Assembly: GCA_963701295.1 (NCBI GenBank)
Contig: OY969585.1
Span: 3,136,001 to 3,200,000, forward strand
Length of the DNA: 64,000 nt
Source of the DNA: Ignavibacteriota bacterium
GTDB lineage: Bacteria > Bacteroidota > Ignavibacteria > UBA10030
Reading direction: 5' to 3'
The notes under the pieces were generated by a model. That model was not told the DNA's origin. It worked only from the letters and a program-made list of their open reading frames with translations, and searched no databases. Every line of letters starts with the position of its first letter. Within the stretch, counting starts at the first letter, position 1. This document shows positions 1 to 36,114 of this stretch, piece after piece. Position numbers and translations under genes: made by a program.

Positions 1-665
1 TTTCCGAAGAAGGATTTTTGCCAAGTAAATTTTCCCTCGAACCTAAATGGGTTATTGATGAATCCATCGAAATAACAGGATATATAAGTATTGAAAAATC
101 TGGACGGGCATTTGTAGAATCTTTCGGCTCATATACTTTTTCTAGATAATGAGTTGAAATGGTAGATGCCAAATGCCCTCCCGCTGAAAATCCCATGATC
201 CCAATCTTGTTGGGATCTATGTTCCATTCTTTGGCATGGCGGCGTACAATTCGGATCGATTCTTGTCCGTCCTGCATCGGGCCAATAGTTTTGTTGATCA
301 TGATGGAAGTATCGGGCAGACGATATTTCAAGACAAAAGCAGTTATCCCAATACTGTTCAACCACATCGCTATTTGAGTGCCCTCGTGTGCAATTGCCAA
401 TCCCCAATAAGCACCCCCCGGGCAAATAATTACAGCTGTCTTATTCGATTTTTCAACCGGTACTGAGGTACATATCAAGCATCGGAGTCGTCACATTTCG
501 CATCTTCACCCAATTATCTTCCGAATCAATTGACTGTTTGTAGCTGGAATTGGTAAGAGCTCCAGGAACCTTGCCCTGCCAAATATCGATAACATTGGTT
601 TGACCGGACAAATGATTTGTATACACCATAAGGAATAATATTGCTGGCACAATTGTTTGTTTCAT
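1..665 (-). pseudogene. Secreted alpha/beta-hydrolase (carbohydrate esterase-like), frameshifted, runs off window
   Basis: Signal peptide ORF 453-665 stops early. Esterase-like motifs (VIICPGG.Y, GIMGFSAGGH) continue downstream in another frame. Confidence 0.7.
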
Positions 666-675
666 ACTCGTGACT

Positions 676-1314
676 CTATTTTTTTAATTCTCGTGCAATT
701 ATTTCTGCCATGACCTTTACAGCTTTTTCGTTGGGATGAATATTGTCGGGAAAATTGCTTCCTTGGTTTTGCATTTGATGGTATAAATCGATGACCTTCA
801 AGTTATTTGCGTTTGCAAGTCTTTCAATAATTGGAATAACTCCATGCACTACCGTCGAATCATTGATACCCCAGGTCGTTTCAAAGACCGGCACAGGCAG
901 ACACAGGAAGATTGCCGGATGTGAGGGGATTGTTTTAAATGTATCGATCAGTGCCTGATAATCCTTCTCATATAAATCTGCATGCCAATTTTGAGGCTTT
1001 GTATCATTTGTTCCAAGTTTGATAATGATAATATCGGGTTCGAAAACAAAGACATTTGAAAATTCTTTATAGATCCAGTATGGGAAATCCCCTTTCTTTT
1101 GCAGCGTCGTAGCACTGCGCCCTGAGTTCAGTACAGAATAGTTCGCTCCGAGGATATTGTCAAGCACCACAGGGTATCCGGTTTTACTTTGGCATGCTAA
1201 TCCGTATCCCTCGGTAATGCTATCGCCAACGCAGGCTACCTTTATTTTCTTAGTAGTGAACGCTGATACAACCAGCGCAAAAATAATGAAACTGATCCAT
1301 CCGGGTTTTTTCAT
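676..1314 (-). CDS. SGNH/GDSL hydrolase (acetyl esterase-like)
   Basis: GDSITEG, GTND and DNIHP blocks. Likely start is MKKPGW at 1314 because the longer ORF crosses the attC. Confidence 0.88.
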   Translation of the reverse strand: MKKPGWISFIIFALVVSAFTTKKIKVACVGDSITEGYGLACQSKTGYPVVLDNILGANYSVLNSGRSATTLQKKGDFPYWIYKEFSNVFVFEPDIIIIKLGTNDTKPQNWHADLYEKDYQALIDTFKTIPSHPAIFLCLPVPVFETTWGINDSTVVHGVIPIIERLANANNLKVIDLYHQMQNQGSNFPDNIHPNEKAVKVMAEIIARELKK

Positions 1315-1399
1315 GGTATTTACTTTCAATAAATGAATTTCATTTGAAGTTTGGGGATATCTGTTCATTGTTTTAATTTCTATTTTGGTTGCCAATTGC

Positions 1400-1531
1400 G
1401 CATAACGGTCGAGGCTATGCACTGTGCGGGATTACGAAGCTGCGTACCTATCACCCGTGACGAAAATTTGCTACAAAAACTGAACTTGCAAAACCACTGA
1501 AACCCGCATTGCGTATGAGCCTTTGTTAGCA
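1400..1531 (-). repeat. attC site, divergent family (132 bp)
   Basis: GCATAAC...GTTAGCA ends with paired arms (GGCTATGCACTGTGCGGG / CCCGCATTGCGTATGAGCC); unlike the main family. Confidence 0.8.
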
Positions 1532-1542
1532 TACGTTTCGTT

Positions 1543-3054
1543 TTATTTCATAGATTTATATTTGAAGTTCTTAAATTTGACTTTCCCTTCACCAATGGAG
1601 CAAAGGCCGAGTCGTAAACTTAGAAATCCGCCCAATGCATTATGATTATAAGAAGAAACTTCAAGTGAATTTTCTATTTTATTCCATTTGACCCCATCGT
1701 TGCTGTAATACATATTGACTGTGTTGTTCATATTTTCGAGGCGCAAAAATACATGATTTTTAATTGCTTTTCTTTCGGTTGGGAATTGCCAACCCCGCAA
1801 ATTAGCCAAAATGTTTTCCTTATCTGCGCCTATGCCTGAATACGCATTGTTGTTGTAGAAAAGCACCAATCCCCCAGTTGCATCTCCCTCAATAAATAAT
1901 TCTACCTGTGCCATATATGAATGGTCTGAGGGGACACAAATCAAGGGAGAACAATCACCAACAGAATGACCTTTCGCATTAATAACTAAACTGTTGTCGA
2001 TCAAATGAAACCTACTAGTGTCGTATTCGTTATAGAATTTCCATTGTGACTTTAGCTCATTGCCCGCAAAATTATCATCTAAGGTAAATCCGATATCTGG
2101 AACTACACCGACGGGTCTTTTGATGGGTTCGTCTGCTTTAATGTTACCCGGTGTTTTATACCAACCGTCATTTGTCCATTCTATTGGTTGAAGCAAGGTC
2201 TGACGCCCCATATTATAATGTTCATTTTCATATCCATGAAAAACCATCCACCACTTTCCGTTTGCGTCTTCAAATAAAGTACCATGTCCTTTAGACCACC
2301 ATTTTTCAGAATTTTCTTTTGTTCTAATGATAGGGTTGAACGGAGAATTCTCCCAAGGACCCAAAGGCGATTTTGAACGTGCAGAAATTACCATGTGACT
2401 TGTCGCAGGACCTGCTGTACCACCTTCCGCAACTGTCAGGTAATAATATTCACCTCGTTTGACAAGCTTAGGCCCTTCCATACAAAAACATTCAATAGAC
2501 CATTCGCGAGGTATAGGCCAGCCATTGTAAGTGTGTTTGAATTCGCCTGTAACAGAAAGTCCATCCTCAGACAAAGGAACATAACCTCCACTACTAAAAT
2601 ACAAATATCGTTTACCTTCAGCGTCTGTAATATGGCCAGGATCGATATTACCTATTTTCAAATCTACAGGATCACTCCATGGACCTTTAATTGAATCGGC
2701 AGTGACAACATAATTTGTATTATTGGCAGGAAAATAAATGTAGTATTTTTTCTTGTATTTCACTAGGTCGGGAGCCCAAACTGAACCTATATATTTATGC
2801 AATGCATTTATTACTGGTGTCCAATTAATTAAATCTTTTGAATGCCAAATCAATAACCCCGGATAATAATCGAAAGATGAATGAACAATATAGTAATCGC
2901 TGCCATCGCGCAATATACTTGGGTCAGGGTAATCTCCTGCAAAAATTGGATTTAAATAATAACCGTCTCCTTTTTCAGAGGTATTAATTTGATGCTGTGC
3001 ATTCGCTAAGAAACCCAATTGAAGGAGCATTGCTATAATAATAGTTTTCTTCAT
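1543..3054 (-). CDS. GH43 beta-xylosidase/arabinofuranosidase
   Basis: NPIFAGDYPDPS, WAPD, IDP, EGP, GHG and GRQT motifs; C-terminal lectin-like domain; signal peptide. Confidence 0.92.
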   Translation of the reverse strand: MKKTIIIAMLLQLGFLANAQHQINTSEKGDGYYLNPIFAGDYPDPSILRDGSDYYIVHSSFDYYPGLLIWHSKDLINWTPVINALHKYIGSVWAPDLVKYKKKYYIYFPANNTNYVVTADSIKGPWSDPVDLKIGNIDPGHITDAEGKRYLYFSSGGYVPLSEDGLSVTGEFKHTYNGWPIPREWSIECFCMEGPKLVKRGEYYYLTVAEGGTAGPATSHMVISARSKSPLGPWENSPFNPIIRTKENSEKWWSKGHGTLFEDANGKWWMVFHGYENEHYNMGRQTLLQPIEWTNDGWYKTPGNIKADEPIKRPVGVVPDIGFTLDDNFAGNELKSQWKFYNEYDTSRFHLIDNSLVINAKGHSVGDCSPLICVPSDHSYMAQVELFIEGDATGGLVLFYNNNAYSGIGADKENILANLRGWQFPTERKAIKNHVFLRLENMNNTVNMYYSNDGVKWNKIENSLEVSSYNHNALGGFLSLRLGLCSIGEGKVKFKNFKYKSMK

Positions 3055-3212
3055 AATTTGTTTCCTATAGTTTCTAAATAAAAATGTGAATGTATCAATA
3101 ATTTATATTTAACGATCCTGTTTTTTTGATCTTTCTGCAATCGGTTAAATATTATAAGCATATCCTTAAAAATGTGTGCTAACTCGTGTAAAAACGAGAT
3201 GTTATTTTTGCG

Positions 3213-3408
3213 TTCTAACGGATGGCGGCTAAGCTGCCACACTGCAAATTCGCAACATGCACCCAACGAAACAAGTTTATACTAATAACCAAATTAAATA
3301 TTCCCCAACCAACGAGGTAATGAAAAGTTAATTATAAAAACTTAAACTCACCATCAGCCATGTAATTTGCAGTGAGCTCTTACCGTCAGCTTGAGCGCCT
3401 GGTTAGGC
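3213..3408 (-). repeat. attC site (196 bp, long form)
   Basis: TTCTAACGGATGGCGGCTAAGCTG...CCGTCAGCTTGAGCGCCTGGTTAGGC. Confidence 0.9.
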
Positions 3409-3469
3409 CGCTGGTTAAAGTTGCCTGAAATCCTCGTCCCTTATAATGTATGAGCTGCTTTTATTTACA

Positions 3470-5089
3470 CTAGTGCTTAATCATATTCAACAAGAAGACA
3501 TCATTCTCTCGGAGGTTCAGTTCTTTTATAAATGCCACGTTATCTTTTATCTTTACTATTTCATGAGATACAGGAGAACCATCATTCAATTTCTTTATTT
3601 GCTCAACTTGCTGTTTGGTAAGTTGCTTTGGCTCGTTCAACGTAAGATACGTTGAATATGGATCGTTCACTTGATAGCCTACTTTATAGATTTCAAGTGT
3701 ATAGCTACCTTCCGGGATTCCTGAAATACGTACTTTTACTTTTCCTTTTGATTTTGCAGGGAGATCGCGAATATAATACACCTGATTATTTACAGAATCA
3801 CCCGGATGGGTGTTGGTGAAATCCCAGAGAAGCACCTGTACGTTGCTCTTTGCATTTTTGCATGCCCACGAGGATGAATCAGTATTAACCAACTCTGTGT
3901 TACCAAGCATATTCATGAACTTGAAGGAATAGAAGACAGGTTTGTTGATTGCCTGATAATTCAGCAATCCGAATCCACCGTGAAAAGGTGTAAAACGTGG
4001 TCCCGCTTCTTCAAAAATATCTGTGAAGACCCAGTAAGACATCGAATTTGCTGCATTGCCAACTTGCTTAATTTTTTCCAGTACATAGGCAGCCTGATGA
4101 TAGCTATCATGGATAGGATCGGTGGGTGTATATGATGAACTCCATTCGGTATAATGCAATTCCAAATTTGGCATAGCGGAGCTTACAATTTCTTTACGGG
4201 ATTGAAGGATATCGCCGCTGACGCTCATGGAATTTTTATCAAGGACTGTTCCTGAATTTCCAAATTCATCGAGATATCCTTGTTTAACTCCGTATGAATG
4301 GGTACTGATAAAATCGAGAGGAATTGCATTTTTACTGCAGAAATCAATCATCTCAGGTTCCCAGGCAGCTCCGGCAGTAGCAGGTCCCCCAACACGATAT
4401 TCTTTATTCACACTCTTTATGGCCTGCACGCTATATTTATATAATTTGAAGTACTCCTCCTGCGTTCCCGACCAGAATCCGTGAAGGTTCGGCTCGTTCC
4501 AGACTTCAAAATACCAGGTCTTCACTTCCTCTGTACCATAGCGTTCAGTGAAATGAAGAGTAAGATTGCGGATCAAGTATTTCCACTTTTTATAATCCTT
4601 TGGCGGTGTAACATTTCCCCTCCACCAGAAAATAACCTGCTTGCCGCTGGCTAATGCTTCCGGCATGAATCCTAATTCAACAAAAGGTTTCATTCCGATA
4701 CTCAGAAGGTAATCATATAGAACATCGATGTACTGAAAATTATATTCCGGTTTTCCATTTTTATCTTCCCTGTAAACGCCCATATCGTCTGTTAACAGTC
4801 CGTGCATACGAATATATTTGAAATCGCATTCCTTTTTTACATAAGCCAGTTGTTGTTGCCAATCCGCCCTTAATCCCTCATTGGCGCGGCCTGCACCAAT
4901 GCATTCTTTGAACATGGCATTGAAGTTCCCTTTGATTTTATTAAAGTCAAGATTGATAATCCGTTCCTGCAAAACGGATGTGTTATCGGAATTGTCTTGA
5001 GCAAATGTAGGGACTACGAACAAGCTTGTAAGAATGATTAATAATAGATAACAAGTTTTCATTTTTTGCTCGCCTTTTAGTGTTAACAT
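3470..5089 (-). CDS. GH39 beta-xylosidase
   Basis: YIRMHGLL, FEVWNEPNL and HYTEW catalytic motifs; signal peptide; true start may be 5062. Confidence 0.92.
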   Translation of the reverse strand: MLTLKGEQKMKTCYLLLIILTSLFVVPTFAQDNSDNTSVLQERIINLDFNKIKGNFNAMFKECIGAGRANEGLRADWQQQLAYVKKECDFKYIRMHGLLTDDMGVYREDKNGKPEYNFQYIDVLYDYLLSIGMKPFVELGFMPEALASGKQVIFWWRGNVTPPKDYKKWKYLIRNLTLHFTERYGTEEVKTWYFEVWNEPNLHGFWSGTQEEYFKLYKYSVQAIKSVNKEYRVGGPATAGAAWEPEMIDFCSKNAIPLDFISTHSYGVKQGYLDEFGNSGTVLDKNSMSVSGDILQSRKEIVSSAMPNLELHYTEWSSSYTPTDPIHDSYHQAAYVLEKIKQVGNAANSMSYWVFTDIFEEAGPRFTPFHGGFGLLNYQAINKPVFYSFKFMNMLGNTELVNTDSSSWACKNAKSNVQVLLWDFTNTHPGDSVNNQVYYIRDLPAKSKGKVKVRISGIPEGSYTLEIYKVGYQVNDPYSTYLTLNEPKQLTKQQVEQIKKLNDGSPVSHEIVKIKDNVAFIKELNLRENDVFLLNMIKH

Positions 5090-5128
5090 ATTTCATATTT
5101 TACATCGAAACAAATTTCAGCGTAAGCG

Positions 5129-5354
5129 GCCTAATGGATGGCAACTAAGCTGCGGCACTGATAATTTGCAACATGCACCCAACGAAACAAGTTCATGCTG
5201 AAAGCCTAATTAATAAATACTAAACTTATAGGTACTAGAAACTGAATAATAAAAACGAAAACCCACTGCCAGTCCTGCTTAACGTACCCATTTACCCGCC
5301 ATGCTTTATCTTTGGGCGGGCGCTATTTCCGTCAGCTTGAGCGCCTGGTTAGGC
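5129..5354 (-). repeat. attC site (226 bp); R' mutated (ATT for GTT); carries a hairpin insert
   Basis: Family consensus arms plus a CCCGCC...GGCGGG insert at ~5291-5320. Confidence 0.85.
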
Positions 5355-5374
5355 AGCGCAATTATTTCTTGTTT

Positions 5375-6010
5375 CTATGATACCTTTTCTGCTACTGCGG
5401 TAATCCAATTTTTTTCAAGAATACAATCTATTTTAGCGAGATGGTACCCCGCTTGATTGAGAAATTCTTTATACTCTTCTGGAGTATGAATTTGCATATC
5501 AATTAATGTTGTCCACTTAGTATTCCGTTTTTCAAATCGAATATCTTGATACACTTCATTGACTATCAAAAGTGTTCCCTTGGGTTTTAAAACACGTTTA
5601 ATTTCTTTTAAGTCATCAATCAAATGGGGCCAGAAATAATATGTTTCAAATGCTGTAATAAGATCGAATGTATTATCCTTAAATGGCAAAGATGAAACCG
5701 TTCCAAACATTATTTCAACTTGACCTTGTCTAATTGGAGTCTCATTTATTTTTTTTGATAGCTTAACCATGTCTTCAGAATAATCAATTCCAAAAACCTT
5801 TCCTCTAGGTGTAGAGAGTGATAATTCTTGAATTGCTTTGCCGCCACCGCAACCAATATCGAGTATATATGCATCTGGTTTAATAGAAACATGATCAAGC
5901 CCCCAGCGTCTAACTTTTGCATGGCCAGAATTCATGCTTCTTCCGATAAATTTTCCCAATTTACCTGACGGTTTTCTACATTGCTTTAATAATTTTTCAA
6001 TCAATCCCAT
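5375..6010 (-). CDS. Class I SAM-dependent methyltransferase
   Basis: LDIGCGGG, GIDYS and LPF..NTFD motifs. Confidence 0.9.
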   Translation of the reverse strand: MGLIEKLLKQCRKPSGKLGKFIGRSMNSGHAKVRRWGLDHVSIKPDAYILDIGCGGGKAIQELSLSTPRGKVFGIDYSEDMVKLSKKINETPIRQGQVEIMFGTVSSLPFKDNTFDLITAFETYYFWPHLIDDLKEIKRVLKPKGTLLIVNEVYQDIRFEKRNTKWTTLIDMQIHTPEEYKEFLNQAGYHLAKIDCILEKNWITAVAEKVS

Positions 6011-6040
6011 TCGATATTATCTCTCATATTTTATAGTGCT

Positions 6041-6080
6041 GCCTAACGGATTGGCGCTAAGCTGCGACGATGAAACTTTC
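6041..6080 (-). repeat. Half attC (R'/L' arm only)
   Basis: GCCTAACGGATTGGCGCTAAGCTGCG runs directly into the stop codon of the next gene. Confidence 0.75.
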
Positions 6081-6083
6081 TAT

Positions 6084-6491: not shown

Positions 6492-6519
6492 GTCTTTATC
6501 TCCTTAAATTATTAATGCC

Positions 6520-6715: not shown

Positions 6716-6733
6716 TGCGCCTTGGTTTATAGT

Positions 6734-7399: not shown

Positions 7400-7455
7400 T
7401 GCTTATCATTCCTTTCAATTAACTATTTGAGTATCCATAAAATATTGATGGCGCA

Positions 7456-8242: not shown

Positions 8243-8265
8243 TTTCTTTTCCTTTAGATAACGCC

Positions 8266-17271: not shown

Positions 17272-19953
17272 TCACTTTAATAGAATAAGTGCCTTCGTCT
17301 TAACAAAGTCACCTGTGTGTAATTGATAGAGATATACACCGCTGGAAAAGTTTTGGGCATCCCATTCCACCGAATAGGAACCAGGTTCTTTCCATTGATC
17401 AATGAGAACAGCAACTTCTCTACCAAGGAGATCATAAATCCTTAGTGAAACTTGACTCTTTTTTTGAATAGAAAATGAAATCTTGGTTGATGCATTGAAT
17501 GGATTGGGGTAATTCTGCTGCAAATTCAATTGACATGGAAGAGCATGACTCAGAGAAACAGATGTAATCCCTATCTCAGAACCATTGTAATGAATGACCG
17601 TATCGAATTTACTGGGACTAATTATACCAATACCCTTTCCAGTATCCACCCAAATGATATTGAAAATTTTATTTTGAGACATACCATTAAATGTTCCCTG
17701 TCTAGATCCGATGGTTAGCTGTTTTGAAGAATCATGATAAGTAATCGGGATAACTGAATATACTCCTCGTTCATAATTGTAGTTGTCATTTTCGTCTTCG
17801 TATAATGTGAATTGTCCATCCGCACCTCGATAAATTCGCAGTTCGAGCGTATCTGCAGGTTTTTCAGTGGCATATTGCATAAAAGGTCCTATCGGAATGA
17901 TGGAACCGGCTTTCACGAATAAAGGGATAGTTTCAATTGGTGCTTGAGCATCAATCGTTTGACCACCATTAAGAGATTCACCTGTCCAGAAATTATACCA
18001 TATGGTTGATTTCGGCAAATAAACTTTTCGCGTTTTAGATGTGTTGGTGCTAGTACTATATGATTGAGTGGTTACCGGATTTACAAGAAATGCCGGACCA
18101 AACATATATTGATCCTGAATATTAGTAATTGCTACGTCCGTTCGAAAATCAAAAGCAAGCGCTCGCATGATTGTATAGGATTCGTTGGTAACCTTCCAGG
18201 CGAGGGAATAGATATACGGTAGGAGTCGGTACCGCAGGTTATCGTAATTCAATAAAATTGATTTTGTATTTGCATCCCAGTTATTTGAAAACAACGCGCG
18301 TTCGCCTTTTCCATGAATTCTAAATATCGGACAGAAAGTGCCAAATTGGAACCAACGAGTAAACAATTCTCTGTTTGCAGCGGTTGTCCAATCGGGAGAT
18401 GTCCAGTTTAAATGATACCCTCCAATATCTGACGTCCAATATGGAATCCCGGAGACACAGGCGTTAATTGCCTGAGGCACTTGAATTGTATAAGAACTGA
18501 AGGTACACGTAATATCGGACGACCAAAGGGTTGTTGCATTTCGCTGCTGTCCGGCAAATGCCTGACGCACAAGGAAGAATGCTCGCTTTCCTGATATATC
18601 AGTTCTCCAGTTCTTATAAAGACCAATAGTATGTGTTAAGGAATAGGTATTGAAATAATCGATCCCTTTGCCAAGTGCAAAAATACTTTTTCTGCGTGCA
18701 TCTAGAAGTCCCCCATTGTCCGGTTCGCATTGGTCTACCCACCATGCATCCCATCCATAAGGAGTAATAAGACTATTATTCGCCTGTCTCCAATATATAT
18801 CTCGCGCATTGGAATTATGAGCATCATAGTATGTGTCATAATTATGTGTCATCACATCCTGCCAGGTAATATCAGTCAATCCTCCTGCGTTCTTCAACTC
18901 ATTAAAATTATTTGTTCCGCTTGCGAAAACCGGCCAAATCGAAATCATCGCATGAATGTTTGCTTTGTGTAACGAATCCACCATCGCTTTGGGATTAGGA
19001 TATCTGGTAGGGTTCATCACGTGCGAACCGATTACATCTGGTTCCCAGTAATACCAATCCTGAACGATGCAATCAACAGGGATGTGATTGTTTCGGTAAT
19101 TGTCTTTGACGGATAACACTTCAGCCTGGCTCTGATACCTATCCTGCGATTGAAACAATCCAAAACTCCACTTGGGAAACATTGGAGTCTGGCCAGTGGC
19201 TTCGCGGTAAAGTGAGATGATATGATCAAAGTCCGGACCGTAGAAAAAATAATAATCTACCATCGTACCGCTCTCCGATACATATTTGTATTTTGTATTG
19301 CCTGCCTCAGCACCATAAAAATTCGATGCCGAGTAGTTATCCCACATAAGTCCATACCCTTTGTTGGATAGTAAAACCGGAATTGCGCCAGTCATATATT
19401 GGATAGCCATATCCTGATTTCGGCCTTTGTAATTCATGGATCCGGCATCTGTCGGATGACAGCCCAATCCAAACAAAGCTTCATCCGCAGGAGATTGAAA
19501 GAGTGTTTCACTATTGTATGTATTGATGCCGGCAATGGTCGCCGCCGTCATATTCTTTCCTACAGAATCATCTTCGGCAAGTATAAGCGCACCATTAAGT
19601 TCGGTATACTGGATTGAATTGGTCAACTTTGTCAATTTGATTTTTATTTTACCGGTTGAAATAATTATCTCGGTTGAGCTTTCAGCAACTTGAAACTGAG
19701 GCTGAGTTATCCACGAGTTTGTTACTACCAAGGACGTTTTTGAAGAGAGTGCCGTCAACGATGTATATTTTACTTCAACGACATCCTCTTTACAAATTTT
19801 AATCTTCATGAAACCATTATCCAATGTGCATGTGATTCCATCGGCATCAGTTGTATACGATACTATGGAAGCCAGCGCAGTGTGACTGACTACGAAGAAA
19901 ATTAGGACAATTGTTATCGAGACAATGATACATTTATATTTAGACTTGTTCAT
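17272..19953 (-). CDS. GH31 alpha-xylosidase-like enzyme with T9SS CTD
   Basis: D.IVQDW, WWVD..EPD, WS.DI, DIGG and RWFQFG; QNYPNPFN CTD. Confidence 0.9.
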   Translation of the reverse strand: MNKSKYKCIIVSITIVLIFFVVSHTALASIVSYTTDADGITCTLDNGFMKIKICKEDVVEVKYTSLTALSSKTSLVVTNSWITQPQFQVAESSTEIIISTGKIKIKLTKLTNSIQYTELNGALILAEDDSVGKNMTAATIAGINTYNSETLFQSPADEALFGLGCHPTDAGSMNYKGRNQDMAIQYMTGAIPVLLSNKGYGLMWDNYSASNFYGAEAGNTKYKYVSESGTMVDYYFFYGPDFDHIISLYREATGQTPMFPKWSFGLFQSQDRYQSQAEVLSVKDNYRNNHIPVDCIVQDWYYWEPDVIGSHVMNPTRYPNPKAMVDSLHKANIHAMISIWPVFASGTNNFNELKNAGGLTDITWQDVMTHNYDTYYDAHNSNARDIYWRQANNSLITPYGWDAWWVDQCEPDNGGLLDARRKSIFALGKGIDYFNTYSLTHTIGLYKNWRTDISGKRAFFLVRQAFAGQQRNATTLWSSDITCTFSSYTIQVPQAINACVSGIPYWTSDIGGYHLNWTSPDWTTAANRELFTRWFQFGTFCPIFRIHGKGERALFSNNWDANTKSILLNYDNLRYRLLPYIYSLAWKVTNESYTIMRALAFDFRTDVAITNIQDQYMFGPAFLVNPVTTQSYSTSTNTSKTRKVYLPKSTIWYNFWTGESLNGGQTIDAQAPIETIPLFVKAGSIIPIGPFMQYATEKPADTLELRIYRGADGQFTLYEDENDNYNYERGVYSVIPITYHDSSKQLTIGSRQGTFNGMSQNKIFNIIWVDTGKGIGIISPSKFDTVIHYNGSEIGITSVSLSHALPCQLNLQQNYPNPFNASTKISFSIQKKSQVSLRIYDLLGREVAVLIDQWKEPGSYSVEWDAQNFSSGVYLYQLHTGDFVKTKALILLK

Positions 19954-21358: not shown

Positions 21359-21372
21359 TTTCTTTTCTCACC

Positions 21373-21486
21373 GCCTAACGGATCGGCTCCCGATAAATCG
21401 GGACGCATCGGGAGTATAGTATTTACTTGTTGAGCTTGCGAAATCCCGCCTTGGCGGGGACTCTTTCCTTTTTAAAATGGTTAGGT
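21373..21486 (-). repeat. attC site replaced internally by an IS110 right-end remnant
   Basis: CGCATCGGGAGTATA.TATTTACTTG...ACTCTTTCCTTTTTAAA.TGG matches 28935-28981. Confidence 0.8.
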
Positions 21487-21496
21487 TGCAATTATT

Positions 21497-22962: not shown

Positions 22963-23295
22963 ATGAATTATGAAGACAAACCTCTTGTTTGGTTACACGG
23001 TGAAGTAAAAACTCCACCGTTCTCAAAAAATGCTCGCCTTGAAGCTGGCTTTTTATTGAGACAGCTACAAGCGGGAGAAAAGCTAAGTCTCCCCTTCTCA
23101 AGACCGATGCCAGCAATTGGAGCAAGATGCCATGAACTCCGAATTAACGATGAAAATAAAATATGGCGTATCATTTATCGAATTGATTCCGATGCAATAA
23201 TTATTTTAGAAATCTTTCAAAAACAGACACAACAAACACCAAAGAATATTATTGATATCTGTAAACGTCGCTTACGAATATACGACGAATTATAA
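22963..23295 (+). CDS. RelE/ParE-superfamily (HigB/Gp49-like) toxin
   Basis: SRPMP.IG..C.ELRI...WRIIY...F.K.TQ.TP. Confidence 0.88.
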   Translation: MNYEDKPLVWLHGEVKTPPFSKNARLEAGFLLRQLQAGEKLSLPFSRPMPAIGARCHELRINDENKIWRIIYRIDSDAIIILEIFQKQTQQTPKNIIDICKRRLRIYDEL

Positions 23296-23306
23296 GGACA
23301 ACAAAA

Positions 23307-23618
23307 ATGGATAAAGCAAAACAAAAACGTCTTGAATCCGCAGGATGGAAAGTTGGAACAGCAAGCAATTTCCTTAACCTTTCTTCTGAGGAATCTGCAT
23401 ATATCGAACTCAAACTTCAATTAGCAAAGAACCTGCAGAAACGACGTATTGAGAAAAAACTTACACAAATGGCAGTAGCCCGAATGCTTAAATCAAGCCA
23501 ATCGCGTGTAGCAAAAATGGAATCAGGTGATCCGACCGTTTCTATCGACCTACTCATCCGTTCTCTGTTAGCTCTCGGTGCTAAACCAAGAGCGTTATTA
23601 CGAACTATTGCTCAATAA
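23307..23618 (+). CDS. XRE-family HTH antitoxin
   Basis: LTQ..VA..L.SSQSRVAKME; follows the toxin. Confidence 0.88.
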   Translation: MDKAKQKRLESAGWKVGTASNFLNLSSEESAYIELKLQLAKNLQKRRIEKKLTQMAVARMLKSSQSRVAKMESGDPTVSIDLLIRSLLALGAKPRALLRTIAQ

Positions 23619-24643: not shown

Positions 24644-24679
24644 CTTATGTGATCCTTCTAATATTAATTGTTTTGCGCC

Positions 24680-24839
24680 ACCTAACGGATGGCGCATAAG
24701 CTGCGGCGTTGATAACTTTCAATATACTGAAAACGAACAAAGTTTATTCACATCACTATTGCGGAACATATCGGAAGAATATTATTTACTTGTCCGAAGG
24801 ACTCCTTCAGAGACTCTTTCCTTTTTAAAGTGGTTAGCC
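24680..24839 (-). repeat. attC site partly replaced by an IS110 right-end remnant
   Basis: TATTATTTACTTG...ACTCTTTCCTTTTTAAA.TGG|TTAG. Confidence 0.8.
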
Positions 24840-27600: not shown

Positions 27601-27681
27601 ATATTACCAAAAAGGAATCTCCCGATTATGTACATTGATAATTCTCTAGGTCACCAACATCCACAATCTAAGGAGATTCCC

Positions 27682-28683
27682 ATGTATTACTCAGGTATCG
27701 ATTTGCATTCTGATAATTGTTTTATCACCACTGTTGATGACACTGGTGCTGTCATCAAGCGACAACGTGTCGAGAATAACAATGAACGTGTTCTTGATTA
27801 CTTCCACTCTCTGCCCGGTCCTCATCACGCAGTCGTTGAGTCTACCACAGGATGGTACTGGCTCAACGATCTTCTCAGCGATCACGGCATCGAGCTTGTC
27901 CTTGCTCACGCCAAATATCTCAAAGCCATCAGTTATGCTAAAGTTAAAACAGATAAAGTCGATTCGCAAACTCTTGCTCTTCTCTTACGACAGGGACTCA
28001 TTCCACGGGCTCACAAAATCAGCCGAGAACTACGCGGCCTGCGCGATACCATGCGTATTCGTCTACGGCTCGTTCAGCAACGAACTGCCAGTCTTCTGCG
28101 TCTCTACAGTATTCAGACCAAATTTAACGGCTCTGTTCCGGATCCGTATCGTTTTCAACTTGCTGTCTTGCAACATACCAGAGACACTTTTACTGCTCAG
28201 ATCCTCTCGCTGGAAAAATCTCTCCATCCTGTGCTGATTCCCAACGACGATATTCAACGGCTCTTGCACATTCCAGGTATCGGCAAGCTCACCGCATTCA
28301 CGGTGTATCTTGAAATCGACGGCATTGAACGATTCGACTCCGATAAAAAGTTTGTCTCTTACTGCCGACTCGTCCCTGCTGCCGATAACTCCAATCGCTC
28401 TGTGCACCATCGCTCCAGCAAAGACGGCAATAAGTATCTCAAAATCGCCTTCTCCGATGCCGCTGTTCATGCTATTCAGTACTATCCGGAATACAAACGC
28501 TTATTCCAGAAATTAGCTCGTCGCTCCAATGAGGCGACTGCGCGAACCGTCGTTGCCAAAGAACTTGCGAAGATTGTTTACTATGTCTTAAAAAACAAAA
28601 CAATATATAAAGGTCTCAAAGGTCAGCCGATCAGCCGGCATAAATCTCAGCAGTGGCCGCGCCTCTCAAGCCCGCTTTCCTAA
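27682..28683 (+). CDS. IS110-family transposase/recombinase (DEDD RuvC-like)
   Basis: GIDLH, VVEST, KTDKVD, IPGIG and Y..LVP...S; AAGGAG RBS. Confidence 0.93.
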   Translation: MYYSGIDLHSDNCFITTVDDTGAVIKRQRVENNNERVLDYFHSLPGPHHAVVESTTGWYWLNDLLSDHGIELVLAHAKYLKAISYAKVKTDKVDSQTLALLLRQGLIPRAHKISRELRGLRDTMRIRLRLVQQRTASLLRLYSIQTKFNGSVPDPYRFQLAVLQHTRDTFTAQILSLEKSLHPVLIPNDDIQRLLHIPGIGKLTAFTVYLEIDGIERFDSDKKFVSYCRLVPAADNSNRSVHHRSSKDGNKYLKIAFSDAAVHAIQYYPEYKRLFQKLARRSNEATARTVVAKELAKIVYYVLKNKTIYKGLKGQPISRHKSQQWPRLSSPLS

Positions 28684-28699
28684 CTGATCCCGACTGCGT

Positions 28700-28900
28700 C
28701 GGGATCGTTCGCTGGATTGGGAAGAGAGTGCGCTGTGCCGTGGTAATATCTGGAACATCTCGCTCGACGAGATACGCTTTCACCATCGTTTCTTCAATGA
28801 GTGAATGTAAATCCGTAAACTGGTTTGGACGGCATTGCTCTGGTAATCGCCTGTCTATTCGATAGAGAACGCGGCATCGGCACGGATTCGGTCGTCCTTA
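28700..28900 (+). ncRNA. Putative bridge/seekRNA of the IS
   Basis: Hairpin-rich; contains matches to both IS ends and a 6-nt match to the attC target; boundaries approximate. Confidence 0.65.
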
Positions 28901-28981
28901 ATGTTAAAGAACTCTGCATTCCGATTGCGCGGAACGCATCGGGAGTATATTATTTACTTGACTCTTTCCTTTTTAAACTGG

Positions 28982-29401: not shown

Positions 29402-29428
29402 TTACTTGTCTAGATGTTTTTTAATGCC

Positions 29429-29623: not shown

Positions 29624-29636
29624 TGCGTTTTGCCGA

Positions 29637-30116
29637 TTACTTTAAAATAAAGATTACAGTTAGCGCTAAAAGAACAAGTGTGATCAAAGTTATTGAAAAA
29701 AAGATATTCATAATGCGACTATGGCTAGATGAATCCTTGGTCATCCTAAGAAGCTCATAAAATACACCACAGTTTTTTATAGATTCTTCAGCAGGTGCAA
29801 TGCCCATTTTAATTTCTAAATTTCGAGCAATATTTTGACAGCCCCTATAAAGTTGGCGAGTCCTGATTTCTAGCAACCAAAATATTATTGTTAGAAAAAC
29901 ACCAATAACAATAACTATCACTAACCATAATCTAGAATTATAGTCTAACGGATTTTTATAAGCCCAATTAAAAGCAATTGCAAGGGCTGCGAGTACTGCT
30001 AAATAACCAGCAAAAAGTTGATGACGCCAGCTTAAGAAATAGCGATGTAATTGACATGCATTTTCATAGGCAACTTTATTAGTTTCAAAAAGGATTTCTT
30101 CCTTGGTTTTGCCCAT
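29637..30116 (-). CDS. Hypothetical 3-TM membrane protein
   Basis: GAGG RBS; three hydrophobic helices. Confidence 0.7.
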   Translation of the reverse strand: MGKTKEEILFETNKVAYENACQLHRYFLSWRHQLFAGYLAVLAALAIAFNWAYKNPLDYNSRLWLVIVIVIGVFLTIIFWLLEIRTRQLYRGCQNIARNLEIKMGIAPAEESIKNCGVFYELLRMTKDSSSHSRIMNIFFSITLITLVLLALTVIFILK

Positions 30117-30188
30117 TTGTTTATCCTCGATAAAGTTAAGACTCTTCAGTTTATTAAAATCGATTTTGAATAACTATTTCAAAACGCA

Positions 30189-30348
30189 ACATAACGGACG
30201 GGCACTAAGCTGCGGCGTTGATAACTTTCGTCATGCAACCAACGAAACAAGTCCCACAACGAAAGTTTTATCATTTGCACCAGACCCTATGCTTAGCCAT
30301 GTTAATTGCACCCAGCTGGCAACCGTCAGCTTGAGTGCCTGGTTAGGC
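30189..30348 (-). repeat. attC site (160 bp)
   Basis: Consensus arms. Confidence 0.9.
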
Positions 30349-30648
30349 TATTGTTACTTTGTTGTACAAACTTTCTTCATAGACAAAATATTCCGACTCT
30401 TTCATAACTCGAATTTTTCTGAGCACAGGCAGCGCATCACCGAGATGCTTTTTGGAACTTAACTTGCACTGCTTTTTTATTCTCGTTCAAATCAAAACTT
30501 GTTGACAACGTAACCGTATAGAAAGCAACCAACATTTTAGTCTGCACTTCGCCCTTAGAAACTTTTGCCAGTAGAAAGAAATATAAAACCCAAATAGGTA
30601 ACCACAATACTTTAAAACACAACTCACACAAAGCGCGCTGCCTGTGCA
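30349..30648 (-). ncRNA. ORF-less structured cassette, family copy A
   Basis: 13-bp stem 30423-30435 / 30635-30647; homologous to copies B and D; strand inferred. Confidence 0.6.
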
Positions 30649-30805
30649 GCCTAACGATTGGCAACTAAGCTGCGGCGTTGATAATTACGAGTCATGCAAT
30701 CAACGAAACGAGCCACACGTCTTTCGCGCCATAAAAATAACGTGTGTTTAGCGCCATGAATTTACCACCAACGCTCCAACCGTCAGCTTGAGTTGCTGGT
30801 TATGT
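30649..30805 (-). repeat. attC site (157 bp)
   Basis: Consensus arms. Confidence 0.88.
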
Positions 30806-31079
30806 TATAGTTTATTTAATGTACAAACTTTCCGAAAAACAATATTCGCTAACATCATCATAACTTGAATGTTTCTGAGCACAGGCAGCGCATCGCCGAG
30901 ATTCTTTTCGGTGCTTAACATGCACTGCTTTTTTCTCGTACAAAACAAAACTTGTTGACAGCATAACTTATAGAAAGCAACCAATCGCGAATTTTGTACA
31001 ATGTGAATGAAACTTAAAGCCAGTAGAACGCGATTACCAAACCCCGCAAGTAACACATACAGAGCGCGCTGCCTGTGCA
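30806..31079 (-). ncRNA. ORF-less structured cassette, family copy B
   Basis: 13-bp stem 30879-30891 / 31066-31078. Confidence 0.6.
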
Positions 31080-31232
31080 ACATAACGGACGGCAACTAAG
31101 CTGCAGCGCTGAAATGCCGTAAGTTGCTGAATACAAAATAAGTTTATTATAAGATCTTTTAAACAATAATTTCTAAGCGCCATGCTTAACGTACCAACGC
31201 TCATTCTGTCAGCTTGAGTTGCTTGGTTAGGC
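31080..31232 (-). repeat. attC site (153 bp)
   Basis: Consensus arms. Confidence 0.88.
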
Positions 31233-31431
31233 CAACAGATTTTAATTTTATCACCATTGGTCGAAAGACAACGACCGATACTTTCAAAATGTACTCAACG
31301 AAATAGATACTTGCGCGTGCGGTGCAAACGAATATTCAATTTAAACGGCACGACGTAGATAGCATTCAAACACTCGTAACAACAAAACATTTTTAAAAAC
31401 ATAATTACTAAACTTTCGCACCGCACGCGCG
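31233..31431 (-). ncRNA. ORF-less structured cassette C (different sequence, same layout)
   Basis: 13-bp stem GCGCGTGCGGTGC 31313-31325 / 31418-31430. Confidence 0.5.
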
Positions 31432-31583
31432 GCCTAACGGACGGCAACTAAGCTGCAGCGCTGATATGCCGCAAGTTGCTATCAACAAACCAAGTTTATT
31501 ACAAAATCTTTTAAACAATAATCTCTAAGTGTCATGCTTAACGTACCAATGCTCATTCTGTCAGCTTGAGTTGCTGGTTAGAA
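31432..31583 (-). repeat. attC site (152 bp)
   Basis: Consensus arms; very similar to 31080-31232. Confidence 0.88.
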
Positions 31584-31664
31584 CGCACGCGGTAGAATGC
31601 TCTATATAACATATGCAAGCATAAAGAGAACTATTGTCAGGGAGTAAAACAAAACGACCGTCAT

Positions 31665-32354
31665 TTAGTCGTTTGTTAACTGCCGTGCCTGCTTGATTTC
31701 TTCAGCAATTTCTTGAATCACTTTCCAGTTACGGGAGAGCCGTAAATATTTCGGATGATATGTACGGTAACATAGCTTTGGCAAACCTGGATGCTTGATT
31801 CGAAGCAGCAAGCCTACTTCAGGAGTACACTTCAATCCGGGGAATGTCTCTTTGAGACGTTCGTCATATTTTGAGCCTGTAAAGAATACCACAGCGTCTG
31901 GCTGCGTAATATCAATTTCCTTCTGTAAAAGGCCGAGATGACATATCTCATTTTCTGCATCAGCATCAGGTCTTCCATTCGACTGATCAAGCTTCACAAG
32001 ATTCGACCATAAGAAAGAATGTGAGGATTGGCCAGTATTCACGACTTTTTGAAGTTCACTCCCAGCTTGCCAAAATGGAGAACCTTTGGATTGTCCGCTC
32101 TGCGTGAAGTTAGCATACATATTCATCAATTGTTTTGGAGAATATGATCCATCGGGGAAAAAAGTATCATCCCAACCATAAGTCTGCTGTCCAACTACCA
32201 TAACTCGAGTCTTAAGGACGCAGTATTCCGTAGGAACACAGATGAGCTGAGGTTTAGAAAGACCCTTATGTGACGTTCCGATAGATTGAAGACGTGTGAA
32301 GACGCTAGAATAAAATTCCAACAGTTCCTCGTTTAACTCGCTCGCTACCATCAC
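31665..32354 (-). CDS. Uracil-DNA glycosylase superfamily protein
   Basis: VMVVGQ, W.NLVK, EI.I.QPD.VVFFTG and TYHP. Confidence 0.7.
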   Translation of the reverse strand: MMVASELNEELLEFYSSVFTRLQSIGTSHKGLSKPQLICVPTEYCVLKTRVMVVGQQTYGWDDTFFPDGSYSPKQLMNMYANFTQSGQSKGSPFWQAGSELQKVVNTGQSSHSFLWSNLVKLDQSNGRPDADAENEICHLGLLQKEIDITQPDAVVFFTGSKYDERLKETFPGLKCTPEVGLLLRIKHPGLPKLCYRTYHPKYLRLSRNWKVIQEIAEEIKQARQLTND

Positions 32355-32642
32355 TTACCTGACAAAAAATATCCATATTGCGGCAAGAGTAATCCCACCA
32401 AAGCCACCTTCTATTGAGTTACGAGCATTATCTATAGACCCAATTCGGGATCCTCGATCATCACAGATGTCGGATCCTCGTACGAAGGCAATTCTGTTTC
32501 CTCGGTCGTCGAGAATAAAATCGCCCTGTACATATCCGAGTCGTCCACCTCGGTCGTCTTTGATATCGTTTCCTTGAATATAACCAACTCGGCGACCGGA
32601 GCTATCGTGAATATTATTTCCTTGCATTTTCATGTTAGGCAT
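32355..32642 (-). CDS. Small beta-flower-like repeat protein with C-terminal hydrophobic helix
   Basis: Four I.D.(R/S)G.R.G repeats. Confidence 0.65.
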   Translation of the reverse strand: MPNMKMQGNNIHDSSGRRVGYIQGNDIKDDRGGRLGYVQGDFILDDRGNRIAFVRGSDICDDRGSRIGSIDNARNSIEGGFGGITLAAIWIFFVR

Positions 32643-32722
32643 AATTGGTTCCTTTCGTTAAGGTTTATAAAAAACACGAATGGCAGATAATTATTTTAAC
32701 TACACCAAAAGTAATTCGTGCG

Positions 32723-32917
32723 TTCTAACGGACTGGCGCTAAGCTGCGGCGCTGATAATTTTCAAATTGCAATGAACGAAACAAGTTCATGCTGAAACCA
32801 AATTAATAAAAACAAAAGTTATAGGTACTAAAAACTGAATAATAAAAACGATAACCCACCACCAGCCATGCTTAACGTAGCCACGCTCATTCCGTCAGCT
32901 TGAGCGCCTGGTTAGGC
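32723..32917 (-). repeat. attC site (195 bp)
   Basis: Consensus arms. Confidence 0.9.
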
Positions 32918-33694
32918 GCCATTGGTACGTAAATTCCTTGATACCTTACCGATATATAACGCAACTTTAGACTTTAGCAACGGTTCACCATGTACAAAAA
33001 ATGGACCGTAAAGTTGACCACGTGACACTTTATTGACTGTACCGTTTGAAAGTTGTTCCATAAAGTTTTCTAAATCGGTTTCATTTTTAGCATGCTTTTT
33101 ATCAGTAGTTGCATTTGTAATAAACTCATGAACAAGCATAATTGATCTCGAACATCCCTTGCGCTCCGCTTCACAAAGCGCGCCAGCGCAAGCGGTGAGA
33201 AGCTGATAACGTAGATTACCGAAACGTGCACTGTCTTTCATTTGCAATCCTAATAAAGCCAAAACCAATTGCTCAGCACGGATTGCTCCATTAGAGTTTG
33301 GATCTTTCTTGCGTCGTTCAAATGCTTTCGAAAACGTTTGTGCAACCGATTCACCAAATGGCTCATCTGCTTTTGCCTCTACAGCTAAAAGATATAAACC
33401 GAATGTATCCCGCACATAAACAGCTATATCGCTATTTCGGGTTTCGCCAGAAAAGTCGTCGAACTTGAGTTTTGCTTCTGGCTCTGCAACCCATGTCAGC
33501 ACAGGGCCGAAATTTGGATGACCCGAAAGGATGGAAACAACTTCTTCCGGCATTTTATTTCCAGCTCCCAGCCAAGCGCGCGCAACTTCCTTCGCACTTC
33601 GTTCATCTTTCCATTGGTTCGGTCTTTTGGGGCCCGCATATCTACGCCACTTCTCAAGTGAATCAATTACACGGTCATTTTTATTGATTGACAT
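32912..33694 (-). CDS. DUF6946-like putative PD-(D/E)XK nuclease
   Basis: WK..RSAKE.A.AW, R..D...VEAK.DE.FG and RYQLL. Confidence 0.6.
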   Translation of the reverse strand: MSINKNDRVIDSLEKWRRYAGPKRPNQWKDERSAKEVARAWLGAGNKMPEEVVSILSGHPNFGPVLTWVAEPEAKLKFDDFSGETRNSDIAVYVRDTFGLYLLAVEAKADEPFGESVAQTFSKAFERRKKDPNSNGAIRAEQLVLALLGLQMKDSARFGNLRYQLLTACAGALCEAERKGCSRSIMLVHEFITNATTDKKHAKNETDLENFMEQLSNGTVNKVSRGQLYGPFFVHGEPLLKSKVALYIGKVSRNLRTNGA

Positions 33695-33711
33695 GTATTT
33701 TCTCCAATGGC

Positions 33712-33906
33712 GCCTAACGGACTGGCGCTAAGCTGCGGCGCTGATAATTTTCAAGTTGCTGATAACGAAACAGGTTCATGCTAATAACCAAATTGATAAG
33801 TATCAATGTTATAGATACTAAAAACTGAATAGTAAAAACGAAAAACCACCATTAGCCATGAATTTTGCAGTTGGCTCATTCCGTCAGCTTGAGCGCCTGG
33901 TTAGGC
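33712..33906 (-). repeat. attC site (195 bp)
   Basis: Consensus arms. Confidence 0.9.
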
Positions 33907-34713
33907 GCCAACGTCTTTGATACTTTCATTAAGTTCGTCGCCAGACTTGAGCAACTCAGAAAATCTCTTGATGAAACGAGCGGCCGGTGCACCATCAACA
34001 ATCTCATGATTGAATGAAACCGTGAGGCAAAGATGCTCTCTTGATTCAAGCTTGTTCTCGATAATCTTTGGTCGGTCAACAATAGTTCCTACCGTCACAA
34101 CAACAGTACCTCCACCAACAGGAATAAACCAGAGAGCCTCGTTCCCGAACATTCCAACCGCTGTAACAGCAACCTTGCCGTAACGTTTACTCATGGAAAT
34201 GCTATGAGATGCAGCGCGAATAAAGGTGCGAAGAAGAAATCTTGGGATCAAGCGAAACCAAAATATCCCAGAGAGTGCGCCTAACTCCCCTTGATTAGTA
34301 TGTTGAGCCGATCTAATCTCATCGTGAATTTGGCGATATGTCTTCATTTGTGCTGCTCGAATACCCAAAGGTTCGGGGACTTTTTCACTGTTGATATCAC
34401 GCTCAATGAGGACAGAAATTGCGATGTCATTGAGGAGAATGAGCTTTCGGCCCTTACGAAATGAATTCAGATGTGGATGTTCGGCAATTGCACGCGCCAA
34501 GCAAGTAACAATGAACGCTGTAAAGGAAAGACGTTCTCCAGTTCGCTGCAGATGTTCCCGAATGATACGCCTAGGCTCGGAAACGTCAACCTCAAGAATG
34601 CCATGGATAGTATCTTGCTCGTTGCCAATTGCAGCGGCAGCTGCCACCATTTGCCTATTGTGCGTGAATGGAATAGAACGATAGCCTGAAGATTTGATTG
34701 AATCTGACTGCAT
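33901..34713 (-). CDS. Stand-alone 2-oxoacid dehydrogenase E2-like acyltransferase domain
   Basis: LTVSFNHEIVDGAPAARF (DHR..DG-type motif). Confidence 0.85.
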   Translation of the reverse strand: MQSDSIKSSGYRSIPFTHNRQMVAAAAAIGNEQDTIHGILEVDVSEPRRIIREHLQRTGERLSFTAFIVTCLARAIAEHPHLNSFRKGRKLILLNDIAISVLIERDINSEKVPEPLGIRAAQMKTYRQIHDEIRSAQHTNQGELGALSGIFWFRLIPRFLLRTFIRAASHSISMSKRYGKVAVTAVGMFGNEALWFIPVGGGTVVVTVGTIVDRPKIIENKLESREHLCLTVSFNHEIVDGAPAARFIKRFSELLKSGDELNESIKDVGA

Positions 34714-34736
34714 CCAAAACCTTTCTTTGCGTTGGC

Positions 34737-34892
34737 GCCTAACGGTTGGCGGCTAAGCTGCCGCATTGATAATTTTCAAAATATACAAAACGAAACACGT
34801 TCATAGTACATACTTTCAAGTTAAAATAAAACCTATGTGCGCCATGAATTTAGTAGTGAGCTCATCCGGTCAGCTTGAGCCGCTGGTTAGAA
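34737..34892 (-). repeat. attC site (156 bp)
   Basis: Consensus arms. Confidence 0.9.
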
Positions 34893-35015
34893 CACACATG
34901 GCTGATTATTCAATTATTAAAATCATTGTCACGTTTGCTTTTTACGCAAAAGTAAATGTTATGGCTAAACATCTTTTGGAATTGCTCACTAAAATGTAAC
35001 CGAAACATCCTGCAG

Positions 35016-35546
35016 TTAAGTGAGTGAAATATTCCGTGGGTGTAATGGCCAATCTGGTCGTCCAGTGATGCCAGGATGCTTTGGAGGCACATTCTGTACA
35101 CGCCGGTAAAATGAATCTAGCTCCCAGAAATGAATTTTACCCCGATTTTCAGGTTTCCTGAGTTCATCAACATAATTGCCCATGATTCCATCCCATAACT
35201 GAACTAAAGGGGGCGCGTAAAACCGATCGATGAGATCCGGATCAACTAGTTTGTGCCGATCCAAAAGACCAAGGACATCAAATGCTCGGCACACCTTGTC
35301 GAGGTTTTCTAACTTTCCATCTTTTTTCATATCTGACCAAGTTTTATTCCTCTGGATGTATGTACGGATGATAGCACGATCCGGCCTTACCTCTTCCATA
35401 AATTTTACTGCATGCATGAAGGATTCTAATTCAAAAGCCTCATGTTGTAGTTTGACTTGATACTTGCTATTCCGGATAATAAGTCCTGTCATAATTGCAT
35501 ATGCAAGTAATGATCCGAACTCTAACACATTTTGAATAGTAAACAT
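35016..35546 (-). CDS. DUF4760-like membrane-anchored protein
   Basis: AAGGAGG RBS; N-terminal TM; F..LG.L....VD...W pattern. Confidence 0.6.
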   Translation of the reverse strand: MFTIQNVLEFGSLLAYAIMTGLIIRNSKYQVKLQHEAFELESFMHAVKFMEEVRPDRAIIRTYIQRNKTWSDMKKDGKLENLDKVCRAFDVLGLLDRHKLVDPDLIDRFYAPPLVQLWDGIMGNYVDELRKPENRGKIHFWELDSFYRRVQNVPPKHPGITGRPDWPLHPRNISLT

Positions 35547-35659
35547 TTTTATATATCCTCCTTAATTTTTTGATCATTTGGTTTTCTATATTACTATTTT
35601 TTGAATCACTTGTGGATGTTATCATAAGTTTAATAAAAATATTATAGCTGGTTTGTGTG

Positions 35660-35810
35660 TTCTAACGGACGGCACTAAGCTGCGGTGCTAATAACTTTCA
35701 AGTTGTACTATCTTCGCGCGAGCATCATTCTTACAATTTAACATCTACACTTTCGACGCGCGGTGAAATGCACCGTCGCTCATTCCGTCAGCTTGAGTGC
35801 TTGGTTAGGT
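35660..35810 (-). repeat. attC site (151 bp)
   Basis: Consensus arms. Confidence 0.9.
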
Positions 35811-36039
35811 TATAGTTATTTCGTTGTACAGAATTTCTTTTAAGATACACTTTGCTCACACCATCACAACTTTAATTTTTCTGACCACAGGCAGCGCATT
35901 AACGAGATTCTTTTTCTCTCGTACAAAACAATTCTTGTTAACACCACACACTTATTGAAAGCAACCAATTTCTAAATCTGTAGAATCTCTATAAAAACCA
36001 AAGCCATTTGACAACGACACAGAGCGCGCTGCCTGTGGA
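35811..36039 (-). ncRNA. ORF-less structured cassette, family copy D (first in array)
   Basis: 13-bp stem 35885-35897 / 36026-36038. Confidence 0.6.
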
Positions 36040-36114
36040 ACCTAACTATGATTAGACTGCATATCGCAGCCTAATACGCTTTTTTGAGTGTTAGACTGCA
36101 TATTGCAGCCTAAC
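36040..36114 (-). other. attI-like site with two palindromic direct repeats
   Basis: Core GTTAGGT not followed by attC arms; TTAGACTGCATAT(C/T)GCAGCCTAA at 36052-36074 and 36091-36113. Confidence 0.7.

Follow-up and report, generated by a model that had tools for sequence, protein, structure and literature searches.

An integron cassette array headed by attI and distant from the integrase gene in an Ignavibacteriota chromosome: a probable satellite platform

How does a long row of integron cassettes come to lie in a chromosome with no integrase gene beside it, and could it still be in use? The question is raised by a 64,000-nucleotide stretch of an Ignavibacteriota bacterium (GenBank assembly GCA_963701295.1, contig OY969585.1, positions 3,136,001–3,200,000; hereafter the window), whose first 36 kb carry some 30 attC-type sites and end at a copy of attI. 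This array is a genuine chromosomal row of integron cassettes built on one attC family. From sequence comparisons across the genome and its relatives, we consider it likely to be a satellite platform that lacks the integrase gene (intI) and is loaded and reshuffled in trans by the single integron integrase (IntI) encoded 395 kb away.

The repeats that delimit the cassettes have the structure of attC sites. Using a repeat finder and a hidden Markov model (HMM) built from window copies, we located 29 sites of the family at 3209–35812, 22 with both arms and seven as half sites; in the reversed genome the arm HMM reached at most 11.3 bits, compared with a cut-off of 15 bits and the 40–70 bits per arm of typical sites. 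Each repeat consists of two conserved arms around a variable, AT-rich middle, carries R″ and R′ cores (RYYYAAC ... GTTRRRY) and L boxes, and measures 97–196 bp (median 157; 19 of the 22 sites, as delimited by a folding script). Because the long open reading frames (ORFs) between sites lie on the − strand, with the exception of a toxin-antitoxin-like pair and an IS110 gene, the + strand is the bottom strand. On this strand, bulging out a G and a T as extrahelical bases lets the arms form pairs at 13.9 of 15 positions, versus 8.0 in the best ungapped register (21 of the 22 sites). The second bulge is a T in 20 of the 21 sites scored; the count of first-bulge Gs is circular, that base having been demanded by the search pattern. 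Whole-site minimum free energy folding often missed the canonical hairpin (z −0.8 to −5.0, with 3 of 22 sites undelimited) because the long AT-rich middle dominates, and arm pairing was therefore counted instead. Rfam returned no matches within the window at its gathering threshold.

The array (1–36046, − strand) reads away from attI, with 28 R′ crossover cores at a median spacing of ~960 bp, from the first attC (35660–35810, − strand) to the most distal one in the window (3213–3408, − strand), both identified by HMM and folding. It runs past the window start by ~2.8 kb, with further sites at −1733 and −990, and ends near genome position 3,133,240, for a total of ~39 kb and 31 HMM sites. Within the window, a 30th attC-derived site (21372–21487, − strand) is a variant whose R′ and R″ cores flank filler resembling the end of an insertion sequence (IS), swapped in for the usual middle, and a like case occurs at 24679–24838. 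The segments between sites behave as cassettes, in that their ORFs are co-oriented and, in the twin comparisons described below, they move as GTT-to-GTT units. The original prediction, made from the letters alone, had described about 30 attC sites, nearly all of one family, an array of more than 36 kb and extrahelical bases on the + strand, all of which agree with these measurements, the G count aside. Its claim that the cassettes are co-oriented holds for the long ORFs, the toxin-antitoxin-like pair and the IS110 gene, which are reversed, being the exceptions.

Where, then, is the integrase? The genome, assembled as a single 3.64-Mb contig with 99.3% completeness, has one match over the cut-off of TIGR02249 (453 bits), at 3,566,706–3,567,665. 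The encoded protein aligns with VchIntIA (PDB 2a3v) over residues 7–318, including the integron-specific insertion (E = 4e-86), and retains all catalytic residues of tyrosine recombinases, which identifies it by sequence as an integron integrase. Searches with three IntI types found no intI gene or remnant near the window; a 45-aa C-terminal IntI fragment lies at 581,744. Genome-wide, the attC family numbers 189 sites (137 with both arms), of which 169 fall into nine clusters of 8–31; 18 of these 169 are beside intI and 151 are away from it. Identical cassette order across strains with neither circles nor any IntI, or a repeat found mainly as dispersed copies, had been named at the outset as grounds for abandoning the original prediction; instead, the genome encodes an intact IntI, and the repeat is clustered. 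The bottom strand is the leading-strand template in eight of the nine clusters, with origin and terminus placed from GC skew only. This is the orientation of most sedentary integrons (PMC5371416). A search for LexA gave nothing over cut-off and one partial match.

Having two or more attC sites but no intI nearby, the window array fits the definition of an attC cluster without an integron-integrase (CALIN), and it is without the intI-beside-attI arrangement of a complete, sedentary integron. By both sequence and position, however, it has the attI of one. The window attI (36040–36115, − strand), with its GTTRRRY core at 36040–36046 after two 25-bp palindromic repeats, is identical to the intI-linked attI at 70 of 72 nt, leaving 2 differences, and lies directly upstream of the first cassette, matching the stretch that separates intI from the first cassette of its own array. 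Its upstream edge is the coordinate, 36114, at which the original prediction had ended the array. Next comes a copy of the intI-attI spacer (36116–36262, − strand), whose homology to the intI locus extends as far as the start codon of intI and no further; the deletions and extra flank of this spacer are shared with a satellite head at genome position 2,834,100 (92% identity over 221 bp). Identity to the intI locus is 67/70 in attI, 63/82 in the spacer and 21/53 upstream of a conserved TTGCRT-N17-TARATT block that points into the array (36197–36225, − strand). There are six genome copies of this block, each upstream of an attI-like site, and we infer that it is a candidate for the cassette promoter, Pc, even though it scores below the threshold of a sigma-70 scan. 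A terminator-like hairpin lies just upstream of it (36226–36245, − strand; one found, 0.4 expected).

The exact attI core pattern has seven matches in the genome, one of them beside intI, and none in the reversed control. In all, the genome holds six intI-less copies of the window-type attI and at least four sites of two other attI types. Its six full-length copies show 0–7 differences in 72 nt and have in common a 1-nt deletion that is absent from all five congener copies aligned. The DNA upstream behaves differently. The Pc segments of the window and 2,834,100 heads have 16 and 8 differences, respectively, to the matching head in a congener (G009) versus 56 and 59 to their own intI locus, much of the latter two numbers coming from an 18-nt deletion that both share and the offset of the ends that it causes. 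Across genomes, the segment upstream of attI groups by locus, unlike attI itself, a pattern that points to attI being kept matched within a genome by exchange or selection.

These comparisons bear on the possibility that the array is a frozen relic, that is, a complete integron that recently lost intI and is now a passive CALIN whose attI is intact only through the short time elapsed. We regard this as unlikely. The intI-less head type is common to G009, so loss of intI predates that split, yet the attI copies of the window genome bear genome-specific features. A relic would also not be expected to hold an exact 471-bp twin seven cassettes behind its attI, or to belong to a class of sites in which, at one orthologous intI-less locus, the first cassettes are different and unrelated in six of six genomes.

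The twin just mentioned is one of several signs of traffic between arrays. The eighth window cassette with its attC (30186–30656, − strand; 471 bp) is identical, GTT core to GTT core, to cassette 14 of the intI-less 2,464–2,496k array (genome 2,478,233–2,478,703), and two more exact twins, of 443 and 1,978 bp, join that array with the 224–261k array. Identity begins 1–4 nt before the upstream GTT in five of five comparisons and ends within or just after the next GTTRRRY core in three of the five. Likeness of attC arms is 0.68–0.80 between arrays versus 0.66–0.82 within them. Intact attC sites are commoner near attI than distally in another satellite (12/13 versus 6/14, p = 0.005) and in the intI-linked array (8/9 versus 2/9, p = 0.001), and no such gradient was found in two arrays without attI. 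Two candidates were discarded: a 618-bp stretch that is 98% identical in a satellite and the intI-linked array and is not cassette-bounded, and a contig joining the window attI to another first cassette, which matches the paralogous head at 1,796,978.

Could RecA-type gene conversion or horizontal replacement have made both the twins and the alike attI copies, with satellites serving as donors for IntI rather than as landing sites? Homology for RecA is on offer in the 150–200-bp attC repeats and the 1.4-kb identical IS copies, some heads are chimeric between IntI types, and in two twin comparisons identity runs out within an attC arm. However, identity starts 1–4 nt before the GTT core in every comparison instead of variably in the upstream attC, and the presence of full attI at six loci would be left unexplained if these sites were unused. 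We think this explanation quite improbable.

Several points nonetheless weigh against use of the window array in trans by the distant IntI. No recombination, circle or transcript was observed, and three public DNA runs gave short pieces that speak neither for nor against the assembly, the inversion discussed below or circles. The sigma-70 scan gave no promoter matches, and the candidate Pc fits 7 of 12 consensus bases. In two of the five twin comparisons identity stops ~10 nt before the next core. No exact twins involving the intI-linked array were found, only IS copies and the 618-bp stretch. The proximal-distal gradient of intact attC in the window array by itself is not significant (13/15 versus 8/16, rho −0.28, p = 0.13). 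Finally, a recently lost local integrase, or a visiting one, could yield the same pattern, since congeners hold one or two IntI of three types ~61% identical to each other, all three of which share one attC family in the genus.

Traces of these other integrases suggest how heads without intI came about. The window genome has orphan attI sites belonging to two further IntI types, at 1,406,894 for one and at 3,339,621, 1,046,696 and 98,929 for the other; genes for both types occur in congeners and are absent here. At two heads, 107–118 nt of the 5′ end of another type's intI is joined to the window-type attI exactly at a GTT core, and a head in the congener G006 retains a 74-aa IntI N terminus. 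Such remnants argue that heads originate as whole platforms from which intI has been deleted. Chimeric heads, combining the promoter block of one IntI type with the attI of another, were also seen at L011:3450-3900, L027:3050-3500 and L084:1450-1900. At the arrays at 1,155k and 2,373k, attI was not found at the heads, and the 2,373k array abuts IS3-like genes.

How did a platform reach this site? The 5′ half of a tRNA-Arg(TCG), severed at the anticodon loop in the manner of an island-end scar, lies 70 bp upstream of the head (36331–36371, − strand), and ARAGORN found no intact tRNA in the window. The intact tRNA-Arg(TCG) is at genome position 2,498,254, adjoining the tail end of the 2,464k array, together with a 92-aa integrase remnant, 674 kb away and on the other strand. 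At 9 of 11 loci around this tRNA in congeners, the genes found to the right of the window head here adjoin the intact tRNA and tadA, and neither attC nor attI gave a match; of the remaining two loci, one has a different arrangement and the other runs into a contig edge. Since the site is empty in these nine, the window array is not a fixed ancestral locus, and the flanks of intI vary as well. The single resident sedentary superintegron that the original prediction proposed is not supported, given the absence of intI locally, the empty sites and the position of this array as one of nine large ones.

The far flank of the window array joins the 2,369–2,464k region in four of seven congener loci. 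From these junctions we predict that an island inserted at tRNA-Arg and that a 635–670-kb inversion followed, with ends in or beside the window and 2,464–2,496k arrays. The tRNA fragment at one end and the empty site in relatives are those of a tRNA island, although it has neither an intact integrase of its own nor both ends in place, the only integrase trace being the remnant beside the distant tRNA. The far end of the window array carries a module with a tRNA-Met 3′ half that is common to other arrays. One of these is the 2,834k array; its head is the closest relative of the window head, and an intact tyrosine integrase and a further tRNA-Arg 5′ half lie near the array. More generally, a tRNA or tRNA fragment occurs within 3.5 kb of an end in 8 of 12 hand-delimited arrays, versus 8.5% for a random point. 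The tail module, made up of an attC half, a hairpin and a tRNA-Met 3′ end, was seen at distal ends at 3,133,100–3,133,240, 2,819,460, 2,419,850 and 1,811,330. In several islands of this genome, at 2,198,038, 2,316,508, 2,839,321, 3,462,846 and 3,626,778, the displaced fragment is the 5′ half of the tRNA, often beside a tyrosine integrase.

An inversion with ends at two arrays is also what might be expected had one superintegron been split by rearrangement, a recognized source of CALINs (PMC4889954), and, as the contig comes without read confirmation, an assembly artefact could have scattered one array. Splitting, however, cannot endow each piece with its own attI, and the heads differ in spacer and flank. 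Moreover, several intI-less attI heads occur in congener genomes that were assembled independently, G009 having four attI cores, one with intI. Both versions of this idea seem to us very improbable.

The arrangement recurs across the genus. Of the 15 congeners and 25 other relatives sampled, 12 and 7, respectively, have IntI; the window head is matched in 11 of the 15 congeners, and the attI pattern is present in 11 of the 16 genomes from the window's genus versus 1 of 70 others of the family, kin genomes being non-independent samples. Heads consisting of attI without intI, followed by attC, were confirmed at loci of G001, G004, G006, G008, G009 and G010. The same attI occurs in public records labeled 'Ignavibacteriae bacterium', 'Bacteroidota bacterium' and 'uncultured Bacteroidetes bacterium'; together with the genus-biased attI pattern, these bear out, at group level, the Ignavibacteria/Bacteroidota origin proposed from the letters. 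Integrons in Ignavibacteriae have been reported before (PMC9024848). In two cases, a complete integron in one congener corresponds to attI only, sometimes of another type, in the window genome (L028 versus 224,177; L025 versus 3,339,621).

If the window array is a satellite platform served in trans, its history might run as follows. A whole integron platform would have arisen by duplication, or arrived on a tRNA-targeting island, and then lost intI, the deletion reaching to the edge of the candidate Pc; the loss would be tolerated because one enzyme suffices. IntI would excise cassettes as circles through recombination of folded bottom-strand attC sites and insert them at the G|TT of any attI copy. 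Each head would offer its own first, expressed position, so that the cell could try several new genes at once. The attI copies may be held alike by exchange between loci, mediated by IntI or RecA, and the shared repeats may also have served as ends of the 635–670-kb inversion across the terminus. Extending these steps, we tentatively propose a distributed integron, in which one IntI runs at least six attI pads on tRNA-targeting islands, matched to the resident enzyme by exchange of attI blocks, with expressed first positions in parallel and with the arrays doubling as ends of chromosome-scale inversions. This wider proposal is possible but somewhat less than even in our estimation.

What do the cassettes carry? 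The cargo includes methyltransferases, hydrolases, glycoside hydrolases (GH) of families GH31, GH39 and GH43, several proteins with secretion C-terminal sorting domains, the toxin-antitoxin-like pair and the IS110 gene; carbohydrate-active and secreted-protein genes as large as these are unusual in such arrays. The first and newest cassette (35811–36045, − strand) is short and has no ORF of 70 aa or more. A large cassette gene at 17272–19953 (− strand) encodes a GH31 enzyme (893 aa) with a secretion C-terminal sorting domain, a GH39 cassette occupies 3470–5089 (− strand), and a single 4.0-kb inter-attC segment, in which a search found no attC, encodes GH43, a GDSL lipase/esterase and a BD-FAE-type esterase (2–3054, − strand). 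The carbohydrate-active enzyme cassettes (2–5089 and 17272–19953) are long for integron cargo. At the other extreme, short ORF-less cassettes at 30186–31586 and 35811–36045 form one family with exact copies in other arrays. The toxin-antitoxin-like pair (Gp49-like plus helix-turn-helix; 22963–23618, + strand) is reversed within its cassette, and its antitoxin model scores below its cut-off.

The IS110-family element (27601–28980, + strand; ~1,380 bp; NF033542 above cut-off) sits in the R″ arm of an attC. Its nine genome copies are 99.6–100% identical, and all nine occupy one position of the R″ arm. The IS1111-attC group (PMC11187229) likewise comprises IS110-family elements at one fixed attC position, the likeness lying in family and position. 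Short IS-end-like fillers lie within attC in the two variant sites at 21372–21487 and 24679–24838. Outside the arrays, an 830-bp repeat, probably a small mobile element, has eight near-identical copies (genome 497,263 and seven other sites). Elsewhere in the window, 58972–62184 encodes a tandem pair of 530-aa proteins that have 17-aa repeats and an S74 chaperone domain, with a secretion-tail protein after them, and at 52912–54762 rtcB adjoins an archease gene.

Why does it matter whether such an array is in use? CALINs make up about half of integron-type elements, their origin and status are open, and standard tools are blind to attI outside classes 1–3 (PMC9024848, PMC4889954). This genome makes 'relic or active satellite' a directly testable question, as it has one defined IntI, six orphan attI that match in sequence, attI of mismatched types to act as natural controls, and exact twins among the cassettes. 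If the satellites are active, an integron can escape the limit of one docking site and one promoter. If the distributed integron proves true, many of the large CALINs in databases would be satellites that are active but have gone undetected, and not relics.

How does the array compare with known systems? In sedentary chromosomal integrons such as that of V. cholerae (VchIntIA/VCR; PDB 2a3v; PMC5371416) there is one locus, whereas here there are nine large arrays with 18 of 169 clustered sites beside intI, and the window array lacks intI and has a site that is empty in congeners. Off-locus cassettes are also known from attG/SALIN secondary-site insertions (bioRxiv 10.1101/2022.09.11.507474), and from the CALINs of Xanthomonas (bioRxiv 10.1101/2025.06.18.660453), in both cases usable in trans. 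However, attG sites are 3-bp motifs and the window head is a 220-bp copy of an integron platform; the accessible part of the Xanthomonas preprint does not mention attI. The nearest precedent is the Shewanella prophage M16-3 (PMC9892861), in which one attI-headed CALIN lies beside a complete integron, a single pair in a prophage; in contrast, the window genome has at least six chromosomal copies, repeated across the genus, with signs of cassette traffic and attI homogenization. Beyond that prophage we found no report of genome-wide attI-headed satellites, in a literature search that stopped short of supplements and most subscription journals.

The window array shares with other CALINs its attC sites without a neighboring intI and an IntI elsewhere in the genome, as is true of the genomes of half of CALINs (PMC4889954, PMC9024848). 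At 31 sites it is large for its class, as 6.6% of CALINs in those surveys had more than 10. It is also headed by attI and spacer, which lay beyond the detection of the surveys outside classes 1–3, and whereas these treat CALINs as relics or as donors to the attI of integrons, the window CALIN is a likely recipient. By definition a CALIN, the array appears, from the sequence of its head, to be an integron platform minus its enzyme.

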